In this document: one piece after another, positions 1,118 through 10,075 of the stretch
Layout of the letters: every line of letters begins with the position of its first letter
Position numbering within the stretch: position 1 is the first letter of the stretch
NCBI GenBank assembly: GCA_041639695.1
Contig: JBEQBQ010000024.1
Span: 1 to 10,076, forward strand
DNA: 10,076 bases
Direction of reading: 5' to 3'
Source of the DNA: Candidatus Nanohaloarchaea archaeon
GTDB taxonomy: Archaea; Nanohalarchaeota; Nanosalinia; Nanosalinales; Nanosalinaceae
Notes under the pieces: generated by a model
What the model was told of the DNA's origin: nothing
The model's database searches: none
What the model saw: only the letters and a program-made list of their open reading frames with translations
Program-made: the position numbers and the translations under genes

Positions 1118-1161
1118 GTATAGTGCCTATATTGATAAAATAGGGTTCCGCATGGTTGCGT

Positions 1162-2061
1162 ATGGCCGAGTGTTCTAAATGCGGATCTGAAACCATGAGT
1201 TTTACCTGCAAGTACTGCGGTGAGAAATACTGCTCAGAGCACCGGCTGCCAGAAAACCATGACTGTAATGGTTTAGAAGAAGAGATAGAGAAACAGAAGG
1301 AAGAAAGCCAGAAATGGTTCGAGGAAAAAGAAGTGAAGAACCCGGCACCATCAAAAGCAAAACCGAAGAAGCCCTCTCTTATCAAAGATATTTTCAGAAC
1401 CTTCAGGAATAACGCGACTTTGAGCATAATTACAGTTACAACTTTCGCATTCTTCCTTCAGTCGATGGTCGGCGGAGGCCTGCTTGAAGAACCTCTTAGC
1501 TATTTTGTTCTGCAATCACAGCTTTCAGACGTTCTAGCGCAGCCATGGACCCTAATTACCGTCATGTTTATGCACGGCGGCATGTTCCACTTGTTTGCCA
1601 ACATGGTAACATTATACTTCTTCGGAGAACCTATAGAGAAAACGGTGGGGTCCTGGAACTTCCTCAAGTTCTACTTCCTCTCCGGCCTGGCAGCAAGTAT
1701 AGGATTTGTCGCCGTAAGGAACATCCTTTCGCTCTACCAGGGTCTAGGAGTCTTTGGTCCGGCCGTAGGCGCTTCAGGCGCTGTAGTTGCATGCTTCGCG
1801 GCAGTCGCCATGCTTTACCCAAGAGCCGAAGTCCTACTTTACTTTGTGTTCCCGATGAAGATTAAGACCGCTCTCTATGCCTTCGGGGGACTCGAGCTTT
1901 TCAACCTAGTAGCTAAAGCTGCAGGAGTTTACCTTCCTGTGATAGGTGGTTTCGCATCATCAGCACACTTAACCGGAATGATTGTCGGCATATGGTACGG
2001 AAGAAAGTTAAGAGATAAGTATGCGAACCAAAGAGGAGTCTTTGACTTATTTGGAGCATAA
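1162..2061 (+). CDS. Rhomboid intramembrane serine protease with N-terminal AN1-type zinc finger
   Basis: ATG at 1162 (MAECSKCG). AN1 finger CxxC..FTCKYCGEKYCSEHRLPENHDC. Rhomboid motifs PWTLIT..FMHGGMFHLFANM, catalytic GASGA and AHLTG, plus multiple hydrophobic helices. Confidence 0.95.
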   Translation: MAECSKCGSETMSFTCKYCGEKYCSEHRLPENHDCNGLEEEIEKQKEESQKWFEEKEVKNPAPSKAKPKKPSLIKDIFRTFRNNATLSIITVTTFAFFLQSMVGGGLLEEPLSYFVLQSQLSDVLAQPWTLITVMFMHGGMFHLFANMVTLYFFGEPIEKTVGSWNFLKFYFLSGLAASIGFVAVRNILSLYQGLGVFGPAVGASGAVVACFAAVAMLYPRAEVLLYFVFPMKIKTALYAFGGLELFNLVAKAAGVYLPVIGGFASSAHLTGMIVGIWYGRKLRDKYANQRGVFDLFGA

Positions 2062-2095: not shown

Positions 2096-2659
2096 ATGGG
2101 AGGCGCAAGCGGAAACGGCTACGGCTTTGGTTCAGATGAAAATGAAGGCGAAAATCGTTACAGAGATCTTCTAAAGCAGGGCAGAGGTGAGAGACCTGTA
2201 GAAGCAGTTCCCGGCACAGGTTTTAGACCCGAACAGCTAAAAAGTTATCCAATGATCAGAGTAGGCCCTAATCTTTATTCCGCGCAGATTGAAGCAGTCT
2301 TCCCATCTGAAGATCAGCGAGATCATATTATAGTAGATCCCAAAGAGATGGAAGATTACACTTCAACAGATAATCCTACCTCTGGAGAATTTGCAGATTC
2401 AGTCGTAACTTACCAGATCCGCGGACTCGAGCATGGAGGAACAATTCATGGAGGAGCTGTTCTATCCTATGAAGATCCAGACCCTTACTTCGATCAGATA
2501 GCGAGGAATAATGATGAACTTGCGGCCATGGAAACTGAAGAATACCCTAACGTAGTGCTAGCCACAAACAAAGGAGAGGGATTTCAGGAAAGAGGGCTTT
2601 CTCAGGTCAGGAGACTTATGGAGAATGAAAATGCGTTAATTCGTGTTTTAGGGAGCTAA
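2096..2659 (+). CDS. Hypothetical acidic protein (187 aa)
   Basis: ATG at 2096 avoids overlap with the rhomboid gene. AT-rich ATACTTAA lies about 28 nt upstream. Acidic composition matches neighbours, and the stop overlaps the endA stop by 4 nt. No family recognised. Confidence 0.75.
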   Translation: MGGASGNGYGFGSDENEGENRYRDLLKQGRGERPVEAVPGTGFRPEQLKSYPMIRVGPNLYSAQIEAVFPSEDQRDHIIVDPKEMEDYTSTDNPTSGEFADSVVTYQIRGLEHGGTIHGGAVLSYEDPDPYFDQIARNNDELAAMETEEYPNVVLATNKGEGFQERGLSQVRRLMENENALIRVLGS

Positions 2660-3201
2660 GGAGTAACACGGTCAACCTCGTAGTAAGTGACCTGTCTCTC
2701 CGAATCAACTACAGCCCACATCATCGTCGCCCTGATATTTTGAGCTAAACGAACAGCTCTAGACATTTCTTGGTAAGGCTGATTGTAGTTCTCGGGCACC
2801 GCATTAACAATCCATTTAGTGTGCTCTCTATCCTCTTTAGGTCCTTCCTTGTACGGGTTGACTCCTCTCGGGTAGACCCTGAAGTGGGCGCCGAACTTGA
2901 ACCCTGTCTTCACAATATAACCTCTCTCCCTTAAATCAGAATAAACCGCATACTTGTGGTCAAAATCCTCATCCAAATCAGAAAACTGCTGGAACATGTC
3001 CTCTCGGGACATAACCTCGTCACCTGAATCAAGAACTTCTAGTTCCTCCCTGTCAACCAAGTGTAACGCTTCAACAAGCGAAAGTTCTAGATACTCTTCA
3101 TCAATATACTTTCCGTAGTATAGTTCAGAGTGAAGTTTTTCGGCGTCCTCGTCGCCCCAGACCTTCACTTTTGCATCAGAGAGTTTTCCTTCAGTTGTCA
3201 T
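2656..3201 (-). CDS. endA: tRNA-splicing (intron) endonuclease, single-unit alpha-type, 181 aa
   Basis: Start MTTEGK at 3201. Motifs LELSLVEALHL, KYAVYSDLRERGYIVKTGFKFGAHFRVY, catalytic Tyr and His (..DREHT..), and C-terminal AVVD..VTYYEV. Collinear with Methanocaldococcus-type EndA. Confidence 0.95.
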   Translation of the reverse strand: MTTEGKLSDAKVKVWGDEDAEKLHSELYYGKYIDEEYLELSLVEALHLVDREELEVLDSGDEVMSREDMFQQFSDLDEDFDHKYAVYSDLRERGYIVKTGFKFGAHFRVYPRGVNPYKEGPKEDREHTKWIVNAVPENYNQPYQEMSRAVRLAQNIRATMMWAVVDSERQVTYYEVDRVTP

Positions 3202-3227: not shown

Positions 3228-3788
3228 TTAATCGAGAGGGTTTTCCCATTCAAACTCGTGGTTGTAGACTTCTTCTTTAGCTTTCATGGCCGCAGGGTAT
3301 ACTTCTCCTTGATCCAACCCGGTTTCCTCCGTTGCATACCACGCAGGATTAATCCGGTTCTTGGTCTCAATATATGCCTCCGAATCTTCGAAAACCCATC
3401 CATAGTTCTTGTTATCCATGAAGTAGACAACATTTGTCAATTCTGGTACTCTGACCTCTCTGCCATCAATACTGACTTCAGAATTATTTTGGAGTTCCCC
3501 TGGCTCAAGTCTGTCCCAAGCTTTCTCGTTTCCGGATTCTTTGAAAACATAAGCCTCGACCGCTTCAATACGACCTTCTAAACTTCCTATATGGCTTACA
3601 AAGTCTTTCAAATCTCTGTTAGTTTCCCAGAAAAACGTGTAAATCGGGTCTTCACCGTACTCCTTAGTTTTAACGGCCTCAATACTGAATGGATCCGAAT
3701 CCACCTCAACTATAAAATTCTCACCGTTTTCATCGAGCCTTCCGGTTTTACGTCTCTCAACCTCGAGTTCAGATTCCTGAATAGACAC
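3228..3788 (-). CDS. Hypothetical acidic protein (186 aa)
   Basis: GTG-start ORF with Glu/Asp-rich halophilic composition that fills the gap between the PRTase gene and endA on the same strand. No family recognised; start uncertain. Confidence 0.75.
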   Translation of the reverse strand: MSIQESELEVERRKTGRLDENGENFIVEVDSDPFSIEAVKTKEYGEDPIYTFFWETNRDLKDFVSHIGSLEGRIEAVEAYVFKESGNEKAWDRLEPGELQNNSEVSIDGREVRVPELTNVVYFMDNKNYGWVFEDSEAYIETKNRINPAWYATEETGLDQGEVYPAAMKAKEEVYNHEFEWENPLD

Positions 3789-4604: not shown

Positions 4605-5588
4605 ATGCATTCGCCTTGGAGCGACCTACTCAACAATCTGGAGAACTGGAAGAAGAAAGACGAAGAAGTTTCTCTTGGAGAACAAAACTGGGAGCCTACA
4701 GAGATAATGATGGAGATAAGAGACACAGTAGCCGACGCAAGAGAAACAAAAAGCGATCCGGAGCCTCACGAAATCTGCGAACATACCAGAGAATATATCT
4801 ACGATACAGAGTTTTCGGAAGGGATATTCGATGAGTACTCTAAGGAGGATCTTGAAAACGAGTGGCTAGACCATTTACTGCTCTTCACTGAAAAAGAGGG
4901 AGAGTATGAATTAGAAGATGATAAGTTTGCGAGATGGTACAGCCAGAACGGAAACTGGAGAGGGCTCCGAATTTCTACCGGTCTAGCTCAGGGATGGAAA
5001 ATACATATCTCCGCAGGACCCGACTCAGGCAGAGAGGTCTTAGAAACACTTCAACCGTATATGTTGGAGGAAAGTATCGCCCATAAAGCTAGAGATTCCG
5101 TCAAAACCGTCCAGAACAAGCTGGACGATGACCAGCCAGACAGAGCCAAAAAGTTCTTGACGATCTACCCGGAACCGGATGAAGACATGCTCGTGGACGG
5201 AGAACAGGTCTTCGAGCCGGGGAATGAAGATCTAAACAGGAGGTCGATGACAGCAAATCAGGAAAGAACCGAAGAAGTTATGGAAGAACTATATACCTTA
5301 CTTGCGGAAAACAATCTTCTTGAAGGGGAGACTATCGATGGAAGAAATGGCAGCGAGGTTCAGGTCGGCGATTCACGGGTTCACTTCCGTTACGGAGGAA
5401 TCACAAGGGGGATAGAACCCACAGTTATCGGTGGCAGAGAACAAGTTATAAACACAGACTCAATTTTTGATCCTACTATCAGAGGACTGGATGAAAACTG
5501 CGAACAGATAGGTGGCTATACACACCCGAATAAAATAGCCGGAATCGGTTATATCAACACACCTAAAGGATCATACATCTTCGATTAG
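4605..5588 (+). CDS. Stand-alone phospho-Ser/Thr lyase domain protein (OspF/SpvC, LanKC/LanL/RamC N-terminal lyase-like)
   Basis: Ordered motifs QGWKIHISA (4989-5015), AHK, KFLTIYP and VHFRYGG match class III/IV lanthipeptide lyase motifs (QGWKIHVS..FK..GKFITIYP..YxRYGG). Start may instead be the ATG at 4707. Confidence 0.8.
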   Translation: MHSPWSDLLNNLENWKKKDEEVSLGEQNWEPTEIMMEIRDTVADARETKSDPEPHEICEHTREYIYDTEFSEGIFDEYSKEDLENEWLDHLLLFTEKEGEYELEDDKFARWYSQNGNWRGLRISTGLAQGWKIHISAGPDSGREVLETLQPYMLEESIAHKARDSVKTVQNKLDDDQPDRAKKFLTIYPEPDEDMLVDGEQVFEPGNEDLNRRSMTANQERTEEVMEELYTLLAENNLLEGETIDGRNGSEVQVGDSRVHFRYGGITRGIEPTVIGGREQVINTDSIFDPTIRGLDENCEQIGGYTHPNKIAGIGYINTPKGSYIFD

Positions 5589-6364: not shown

Positions 6365-6470
6365 AGCGGGGTGGAGCAGCCAGGAGCAAAACTGCCTCTC
6401 TGAGGCGTTTTACTGCGTGCTCGTCGGGCTCATAACCCGGAGGTCGATGGTTCAAATCCATCCCCCGCTA
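6365..6470 (+). tRNA. Initiator tRNA-Met (CAT) with a 31-nt D-loop intron
   Basis: Acceptor AGCGGGG/CCCCGCT with A1-U72. D stem GAGC/GCTC. Anticodon arm TCGGG-CTCATAA-CCCGG with three G-C pairs (initiator hallmark). T arm GATGG-TTCAAAT-CCATC. Discriminator A6470; CCA not encoded. D loop is 41 nt instead of about 10. Confidence 0.95.
6387..6417 (+). other. Non-canonical tRNA intron (position ~20a/21) in a relaxed bulge-helix-bulge
   Basis: Removing it restores the typical archaeal iMet D loop AGCCAGGAGT. Intron hairpin AAAAC-T-GCCTC-TCT-GAGGC-GTTTT. Central helix CAGG/ACTG (3 pairs plus G.A), bulges AG^C and CG^T, outer helix AGC/GCT. Confidence 0.8.
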
Positions 6471-9166: not shown

Positions 9167-10075
9167 CTAGCCCGGGAAGCCGGTTACCTCTGTCTCGTAC
9201 TCACCGCCCTCTCCTGCTGCGTTGAAGCCGTACTCTTTCGAGAGCTCAACCAGCTCCTCAACAGACTCCTCATCCAGAGTATCGCCGACCCATGATTCAT
9301 CGAGGCCTCTAGCTGCAGTACGGGTAATCTCTACCTCAAAACCTTCCCTGATCAGCCATTTCATGTAACGTTCCTGGTTTTCCTGCCAGAGAGGTGCAAA
9401 GACCTTCAGACCAAGCTTCTCAGCTACCTTCTCAACCCGATCACGTTGATAGGTTGATTCTATCGCTCCAGCAACTACACCCTCAACCCCATACTTCTCC
9501 GTCGCTTTCCTCAAACCCTCCTCAAGATCATCCAGCTCTTCCTCCTTCTCACCTTCAGTCTTCTGAACAATTAGAGGTGCACCTATCTTTTCAGCCTGCC
9601 TCTCTATAGCCGATTTATCTTTCCTTGAGTCAAACATGTAGCTATCCTTATTCTTCGATCTCAAAGTTAGCAGACAGGATATTTCGTTGTTTCTTCTCTT
9701 CATCCTGTATATTGCGGCGTTCGAATCCTTTCCTCCAGAAGTTAAACCGACAAGCTTCCTGTTCGGTTTATCACGGAAAGAGTTTAGATATGACTGTTTA
9801 TGGTCGAAGCCTTTGTCTTTTGAAAGCCTTGAGATTGCTTTATCGAAGTTTGAGCCGTACTGGGCCGCCGTCTTCTTCCTCCACGCAACCTTTTCCGGTA
9901 CGCCCAGTTTTTCTGCCGCTTTACGCAGAACGTACTTCCTGTAATCTTCTCTTACTTTGTATTCTTCAGGTATTGTTAATGCGTGTTCAATTAGTTCGTG
10001 GTCGAGAAACGGAAGCCTTAGTTCGTAGCCGTTCCTGAAACTGATTACGTTATCCCTGTAGAGATCACCCTCAAA
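9167..10075 (-). CDS. Asparagine synthetase (C-terminal domain) fused to diphthine--ammonia ligase (Dph6 / PP-loop ATPase); 5'-truncated by the window edge
   Basis: Frame is open from 10075 with no stop: DLYRDN..ELRLPFLD..RKYVLRKAA..WRKKTAAQYGS (AsnB), a linker, then RKLVGLTSGGKDS (SGGKDS at 9722-9739), SYMF, GAIESTYQRDRVE, PLWQ, GEGGEYET (Dph6). The ORF-track start at 9703 is internal. Confidence 0.92.
   Translation of the reverse strand, partial: FEGDLYRDNVISFRNGYELRLPFLDHELIEHALTIPEEYKVREDYRKYVLRKAAEKLGVPEKVAWRKKTAAQYGSNFDKAISRLSKDKGFDHKQSYLNSFRDKPNRKLVGLTSGGKDSNAAIYRMKRRNNEISCLLTLRSKNKDSYMFDSRKDKSAIERQAEKIGAPLIVQKTEGEKEEELDDLEEGLRKATEKYGVEGVVAGAIESTYQRDRVEKVAEKLGLKVFAPLWQENQERYMKWLIREGFEVEITRTAARGLDESWVGDTLDEESVEELVELSKEYGFNAAGEGGEYETEVTGFPG

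Follow-up and report, generated by a model that had tools for sequence, protein, structure and literature searches.

Previous studies described the Tyr-His-Lys triad of tRNA-splicing endonuclease as conserved in all types of archaeal EndA and in the eukaryotic Sen2/Sen34 (PMC6379350, PMC5829648). In RNA complexes of the ARMAN-2 and A. fulgidus enzymes, the scissile phosphate is bound at a non-bridging oxygen by the lysine amine together with the backbone amide at His+1, the position following the histidine, the contacts in ARMAN-2 being made by K282 NZ and the S252 amide, and an arginine (R280 of A. fulgidus, R275 of ARMAN-2) binds the bulge (PMC12397907). The K282A exchange abolished the activity of ARMAN-2 EndA, with no detectable cleavage (PMC3488258). 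Here we describe an EndA gene that lacks this lysine, located on contig JBEQBQ010000024.1 of a Candidatus Nanohaloarchaea archaeon (GCA_041639695.1). The analysed stretch, called the window below, comprises 10,076 nt, and the genome (971 kb, 38 contigs, 89% complete) was assembled from a hypersaline lake metagenome. We found that the loss of the lysine is shared by the whole phylum and by EndAs of other lineages, and that introns in essential tRNA genes make it very probable that the enzyme is active all the same.

Several of the described enzymes also carry an insertion between the catalytic tyrosine and histidine. Hirata 2012 reported that the loop specific to N. equitans (NEQ) and residues 240-247 of ARMAN-2 EndA lie close to the triad (PMC3488258). 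Kaneta 2018 renamed the NEQ-specific loop L3, found it in the alpha4 EndAs of many DPANN lineages and linked it to disrupted tRNA genes (PMC5829648); the literature already credits L3 with broad specificity, and the tree of that study includes the EndA of Nanohaloarchaea SG9. For the ARMAN-2 loop mutants K241A and K244A no effect was shown, and the loop was not shown to matter in ARMAN-2 (PMC3488258).

A single-unit EndA with alanine at the catalytic lysine position

The gene (endA, 2656..3201 including the stop codon, minus strand) was recognized from its translated open reading frame (ORF) and from Pfam and HMMER searches, and it encodes a single-unit protein of 181 aa (alpha4 type). Both EndA domains scored above their curated cut-offs, PF02778 (N-terminal domain) at residues 4-70 (E 4.8e-17, 61.7 bits, cut-off 21) and PF01974 (catalytic C-terminal domain) at residues 80-173 (E 3.5e-26, 91.5 bits, cut-off 27), which places the protein in the archaeal EndA homology family. 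Homologues of 176-182 aa spanned 98-100% of the query and covered it end to end; therefore the ATG at 3201, and not the upstream ATG at 3249, was taken as the start.

We aligned the protein separately by HMMER to five solved EndAs (M. kandleri 5x89, M. jannaschii 1a79, ARMAN-2 4fz2, N. equitans 3iey and A. fulgidus 1r0v), and in every alignment the catalytic lysine stood opposite Ala158 (codon GCG, 2728..2730, minus strand, as for all residues below; motif NIR-A-TMM), with no gap from the histidine onward. The initial annotation had read alanine at this codon, and the five alignments bore it out. The remaining active-site residues were all found: Tyr110 (2872..2874), the general base in solved homologues, His127 (2821..2823), the general acid in solved homologues, and Arg151 (2749..2751), which aligned to the bulge-binding arginine of the RLA motif (R280 in A. 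fulgidus, R275 in ARMAN-2). The canonical site is thus complete in tyrosine, histidine and RLA arginine, and the lysine is the member that is missing.

The loop between Tyr110 and His127 comprises 16 residues (111-126, 2824..2871) as against 9 in 1a79 and includes the basic residues Arg112, Lys118, Lys122 and Arg125; the length and the two lysines had been stated correctly in the initial annotation. It aligned to the loop of N. equitans EndA (3iey_A) with one gap, the two having G-V-x-P, a lysine, a glycine and a basic residue five positions before the histidine (His-5) in common. This last residue is Lys122 (2836..2838) in the query and arginine in 3iey. In addition, the pattern GVNPY-x-[ED]-G-P-K was conserved in the query and the 120 homologues that matched it best in the database. 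With its length and its basic Lys118, Lys122 and Arg125, the insertion is, by alignment, the published L3 loop of NEQ and ARMAN-2 and not a new one, so the lengthened loop loses the novelty first attributed to it (PMC5829648). The crenarchaea-specific and ARMAN-specific loops (CSL and ASL, or L1/L2), which had been named as its kin, sit at a different, N-terminal site, and in the 4fz2 alignment the query was gapped opposite the ARMAN-2 ASL region, with no insert there.

The predicted structure agreed with these assignments. An AlphaFold2 model built from a 90-row alignment reached a mean pLDDT (per-residue confidence) of 92.1 and a pTM (overall fold score) of 0.88, and its top Foldseek matches were all EndA/TSEN chains, so the fold is that of EndA; the best PDB match was 1a79_A, the M. 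jannaschii homotetramer (TM 0.86/0.91, E 6.3e-18). Ala158 lies in the model at the junction between helix 143-155 and strand 159-165. When four copies were modelled together, the score was 0.49 against 0.02 for the best control (the score mark applied is reached by 20/30 proteins solved as pairs and 1/23 solved as single chains), contact agreement between runs was at least 84%, partner pLDDT was at least 80, and the interface ran through strand 172-181. As the 1a79 tetramer is already solved and may drive this score through memorization by the model, the four-copy result is to be read as a likeness and not as proof of assembly. Further, the genome holds a single one-unit EndA gene and no structural subunit gene was found in it, as expected of the alpha4 type. 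Most likely the protein would form a homotetramer like that of M. jannaschii.

Compared with the known systems, the query most resembles M. jannaschii EndA (1A79), likewise a single unit that has both Pfam domains in about 180 aa, 36% identical to the query, in which tyrosine, histidine and RLA arginine align and a C-terminal strand forms the interface as in the four-copy model; it differs in having alanine and not lysine at position 158, the longer loop, and threonine instead of serine after the histidine. The catalytic subunit of N. equitans (3IEY) has the homologous Tyr-His insertion (Hirata 2012; Kaneta 2018), but keeps the catalytic lysine and needs a separate structural subunit, whereas the query is one gene without the lysine. 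The epsilon2 EndA of ARMAN-2 (4FZ2, 9W2K) has an L3-type loop at residues 240-247, but is a three-unit protein whose ASL loop carries a Lys161 that is absent from the query.

Conservation and spread of the lysine loss

Among the query and the 120 best homologues (61-89% identity; those with names are Nanohaloarchaea), residue 158 was alanine in 114, serine in 7 and lysine in none of the 121 sequences. The same was seen in 34 EndA frames taken from genomes of the phylum (a count in which the own gene appears twice, together with the second copies of two genomes, G062 and G069), where 33 had alanine, one threonine and none lysine. Because the position is Ala/Ser in 121/121 homologues and Ala/Thr in 34/34 frames, the alignments confirm the missing lysine as a fixed lineage trait of the phylum rather than an effect of chance, sequencing error or strain variation; the initial annotation had foreseen that close homologues might retain lysine, and none did. 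In the 121-sequence set, Tyr110, His127, Thr128 (2818..2820) and Arg151 were invariant, followed by Lys122 (120), Arg157 (119), Arg112 (116), Lys129 (91) and Lys118 (74). Thus both the small residue at 158 and the loop lysine at 122, whose conservation had been in question, hold across the set.

The loss reaches beyond the phylum. A search over 50%-identity representatives gave, from its best 150 matches minus one (P0002; 149 remaining), 139 catalytic units with tyrosine, histidine and enough coverage, 124 of which had lysine and 12 had Ala/Ser/Thr; according to the source names, Lys-less clusters contain members from Aenigmarchaeota (clusters P0127 and P0138) and Diapherotrites (cluster P0154). 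When species genomes were scanned with an alignment of Lys-less EndAs led by Aenigmatarchaeota, the 80 best loci were returned, 79 of them readable. Fifty-two were Lys-less (Aenigmatarchaeota, Nanohaloarchaeota, 'Nanobdellati', an Iainarchaeum, one 'Methanobacteriota' bin, and records titled Planctomycetota and Bathyarchaeota) and 27 Lys-bearing (Hadarchaeota, Altiarchaeales, Hydrothermarchaeota, an Undinarchaeota and others), a split that is not a frequency, the loci being the best matches to a Lys-less query. The Lys-less EndAs of Aenigmatarchaeota and Iainarchaeum share with the query Ala/Ser/Thr at the lysine position and threonine after the histidine, and most have an L3 loop with a G-x-K motif; they differ in that this loop has 15 residues instead of 16, and in some 9 (L079, L115). 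The lysine may have disappeared once, in a common ancestor with the EndAs of Aenigmatarchaeota type, or through a small number of related losses. No paper found in full-text searches on archaeal EndA and DPANN splicing mentions a Lys-less EndA; an alignment figure could show the alanine without comment. The loop, the enzyme family and the substrates are already known, so that the EndA described here is no new kind of system; the new element is the missing lysine.

Some relatives showed further variation. P0122 (360 aa) is a two-unit EndA with tyrosine and histidine in both units and serine at both lysine positions; it resembles an alpha'2-like fusion that falls within the Lys-less clade, and each chain may have two active units. 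P0196 and P0249 (about 170 aa) are single-unit kin of the clade in which the catalytic histidine is absent and lysine replaces the RLA arginine, and they are likely to be structural subunits.

Search for a second endonuclease

A second EndA was not found in the own genome, where searches at E up to 10 gave one PF01974 and one PF02778 match, nor was a second canonical EndA found across 70 genomes of the phylum, of which eight are single-contig assemblies with one strong copy each; such a gene had been suggested as something to look for in the initial annotation. EndA matches above cut-off were present in 67/70 of these genomes, including 28/28 of high quality, and the number of strong copies was one per genome, apart from G062 and G069, where it was two. 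The EndAs read in both genomes (both copies of G062, two of G069) were Lys-less. Likewise, a single EndA was found in 4/5 Lys-less genomes outside the phylum.

The two G062 copies lie about 4.4 kb apart on one contig (L036, G062:C1:4300-10600) of a genome with 7% contamination, so that the pair may reflect a true duplication or else an error of assembly. Weak PF01974 matches recurred as well (E 0.07-0.3, ORFs of about 250 aa) and were considered as a second EndA; two were read, and both proved to be Nop5/Nop56-like genes beside fibrillarin.

Introns that require splicing

The own genome has an intact RtcB gene. With introns allowed, ARAGORN called 43 tRNA genes, 11 with a predicted intron of at most 200 nt. 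We checked these 11 for a bulge-helix-bulge (BHB) structure in its full form with flanking helices (hBHBh': central helix of four pairs, two bulges of 3 nt, 5-7 pairs in the outer and 2-4 pairs in the inner helix); the introns of Ile-aat and Gln-ttg exceed 200 nt and were left out. The motif was present at the predicted intron ends, or 1 nt off, in 6/11 genes (Asn GTT, Met CAT, Trp CCA, Gly GCC, Thr CGT and Ile TAT); in Ser GGA it was found only 4 nt off the predicted ends, and at the remaining four intron calls (Thr on contig C4, Ala on C5, Arg on C12, Phe on C33) there was no BHB, and these calls were treated as unreliable.

The initiator tRNA-Met gene lies in the window itself (6365..6470, plus strand). 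It was missed by ARAGORN and recovered by a profile search with nhmmer, which gave this one credible new tRNA gene, present as a single copy in the genome (one match), plus two weak matches. Its Rfam tRNA score of 26.1 bits is below the gathering score of 29 because the D-arm is interrupted, by a 31-nt D-loop intron after gene nucleotide 22 (6387..6417, plus strand). The exon junction was fixed by the intron-less 75-nt orthologues of two genomes, G040 and G064 (L160, L161), the latter of the same genus. The intron forms a near-canonical 3-4-3 BHB, with an outer helix of 3 bp, a central helix of 3 pairs plus G.A and an inner helix of 5 bp, and it is a likely EndA substrate. The same D-loop site is used in G050, G065 and G007 (four genomes in total), where the inner helices differ in sequence and still pair. 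Elsewhere in the phylum the initiator gene is interrupted at position 29/30, with the BHB confirmed at six loci; some genes have two introns, others none, and at one locus (L158, G043:C54:38900-39500) the canonical 37/38 site is occupied by an intron of 452 nt whose BHB is perfect. Initiator introns of this kind are typical substrates of a broad-specificity EndA. Since the sole initiator and other tRNAs need intron removal, an inactive enzyme is very unlikely.

In the own genome, tRNAs for Asp and for several Leu, Val, Arg, Pro and Gly anticodons are missing from the ARAGORN calls; genome incompleteness or odd introns could explain this. Four rRNA motifs had no match in the 38 contigs, and some of the undetected tRNA and rRNA genes may have escaped assembly or carry too many interruptions to be recognized. 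For the 6-kb stretch around tRNA-Trp, no RNA run was listed, and a single DNA run contains the stretch.

How the lysine may be replaced

Taken together, no second EndA, an intact RtcB, six tRNA introns with BHB motifs and a sole initiator gene with an intron make it very probable that the EndA is active despite the missing lysine; gene content points to it as the organism's only endonuclease for BHB splicing of tRNA and rRNA. In line with this, Tyr110, His127, Thr128 and Arg151 are kept in 121/121 sequences, whereas in two-unit EndAs the histidine is mostly gone from the non-catalytic repeats. Our favoured explanation, to which we give somewhat better than an even chance, joins this with the chemistry: the enzyme would be the sole and active splicing endonuclease, and the role of the lysine would be redistributed to other protein groups. 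Activation of the 2'-OH would fall to Tyr110 and protonation of the leaving group to His127; the transition-state-stabilising role of the lysine would be taken over by an additional hydrogen bond from Thr128, beside the vacated site, and by the positive charge of a basic residue close by, for which Lys122 of L3 is the likeliest choice in nanohaloarchaea, with Arg157 (2731..2733) or Arg112 as the alternatives.

Co-occurrence in the family singles out Thr128, the residue at His+1, more clearly than the loop. Threonine was found at this position in 20/22 Lys-less and 0/125 Lys-bearing catalytic units among the representatives, and in 52/52 Lys-less and 0/27 Lys-bearing genome loci; Lys-retaining EndAs have alanine or serine there, and the nearest Lys-bearing relatives (P0186, P0217, P0237) read His-Ala. 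In the same 22 and 125 units, asparagine three residues before position 158 was present in 20/22 Lys-less and 7/125 Lys-bearing ones, a basic residue at Tyr+2 in 95% versus 42%, the loop lysine (Lys122) in 77% versus 2%, and a basic residue at the position of Arg157, which directly precedes Ala158, in 21/22 versus 80%. Thus threonine at His+1 follows the lysine loss more tightly than the loop lysine does, which fits a coupled change of Thr128 and the lysine at the phosphate-binding corner. We consider it probable that some protein group compensates for the lysine.

The initial annotation had proposed that a loop lysine replaces the lost one, and this stands in part. Lys122 is near-invariant in the phylum (120/121 sequences, 34/34 frames), long-loop Lys-less clusters have the G-x-K motif, and the loop lies near the triad in solved homologues (PMC3488258). 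Against it, a basic His-5 residue is also present in Lys-retaining L3 enzymes (arginine in 3iey, P0217 and P0237), and so either predates the lysine loss or arose independently; six Lys-less forms have a short, 9-residue loop (P0154, P0215, P0250, P0263, L079 and L115), so that a long loop is not needed to tolerate the loss; and the K241A and K244A exchanges are without reported effect in ARMAN-2. Lys122 is therefore a tentative candidate for the compensating group, and a rather doubtful one. The His-5 residue and the short-loop forms both weaken a specific role for this lysine. Other points weigh against the favoured explanation as a whole: the K282A result would lead one to expect a Lys-less enzyme to be dead or very slow; the co-occurrence of threonine and lysine loss amounts to only 1-3 independent contrasts, for which no significance can be claimed; the own genome is incomplete; and one closed Aenigmatarchaeota chromosome (G070), unlike the nanohaloarchaeal genomes, encodes a canonical epsilon2-type EndA, a three-unit ARMAN-2-like protein of 399 aa with the lysine intact (L167, 865-2064), beside the Lys-less single-unit one, so that elsewhere the enzyme that does the work is not necessarily the Lys-less one.

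The best-surviving alternative, which we regard as unlikely, is that nothing compensates: the lysine would only speed catalysis, a slow Tyr-His enzyme would suffice for a slow-growing symbiont with a small genome, the loss would have been fixed by drift, and Thr128 and the loop lysine would be lineage markers. The tree requires just 2-3 changes of lysine state, and with so few changes and contrasts shared ancestry may account for the residues that co-occur; the short-loop Lys-less forms agree with this, and DPANN genomes are reduced and fast-evolving (PMC5829648). On the other hand, removal of the lysine left ARMAN-2 EndA with no detectable cleavage (PMC3488258), the Lys-less state has been kept in at least three phylum-level groups with the surrounding residues strictly conserved, and essential tRNAs including the sole initiator require splicing.

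Lysine and K+ exchange roles in other enzymes. The cavity left by the Lys-to-Ala change might be filled by a monovalent cation (K+ or NH4+) that supplies the charge and is bound by Thr128 together with backbone carbonyls. The small residue (Ala/Ser/Thr) at 158 is always paired with a hydroxyl residue at His+1, and the source is a hypersaline lake; the same pattern is found, however, in Aenigmatarchaeota and Iainarchaeum genomes whose record titles name groundwater and sediment, so it is not tied to salt, and we hold this explanation to be quite improbable.

That the EndA has no catalytic activity and serves as a structural or RNA-binding subunit, the introns being cut by another nuclease of the cell or of its haloarchaeal host, would agree with the loss of the very residue whose mutation kills ARMAN-2 EndA and with the canonical EndA of G070. 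No second EndA-family gene was found in the own genome or the 70 phylum genomes, four of the five other Lys-less genomes searched have one EndA only, and the tyrosine, histidine and bulge-binding arginine are invariant, contrary to known structural units, which leaves this explanation highly improbable. An artefact (misalignment, frameshift or sequencing error giving alanine at the lysine position) is refuted by five agreeing HMMER alignments that are gap-free from the histidine to position 158, by 121/121 homologues from many sources without the lysine, and by the structure model, which puts residue 158 at the helix-strand junction.

Returning to redistribution of the lysine's role, its most specific form would be a catalytic residue that has moved: across Nanohaloarchaeota, Aenigmatarchaeota and some Iainarchaeota, an L3-loop lysine and the threonine beside the histidine (Tyr-His-Thr plus loop lysine) would replace the triad lysine, and the mobile charge would admit irregular or misplaced BHB motifs. 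We regard this form as distinctly doubtful; if true, the mobile loop charge would let the enzyme accept the D-loop and anticodon-stem introns of nanohaloarchaeal initiator tRNAs. The D-loop intron of the initiator tRNA in this genome lends plausibility to a more general link between the L3 loop with its Lys-less site and relaxed-BHB splicing, as suggested in the initial annotation. The lysine is usually treated as a transition-state stabiliser, and on the evidence above a whole archaeal group appears to run essential RNA processing without it. The Lys-less EndAs thereby offer a natural experiment on active-site function, contradict the textbook statement of a conserved triad, bear on how DPANN archaea handle heavily interrupted tRNA genes, and call for caution in annotation and in evolutionary schemes where the triad alone decides whether a subunit counts as catalytic or structural.

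Other genes in the window

Three further genes of the window have unusual domain content. A rhomboid protease carrying an N-terminal AN1-type zinc finger is encoded at 1156-2061 (plus strand). At 4605-5588 (plus strand), a 327-aa protein matched the RamC N-terminal domain (E 7.5e-17), which is unexpected for a nanohaloarchaeon. Finally, a frame at 9167-10075 (minus strand), which extends past the window end, combines the C-terminal part of an asparagine synthase with a diphthamide-synthase domain (Diphthami_syn_2).

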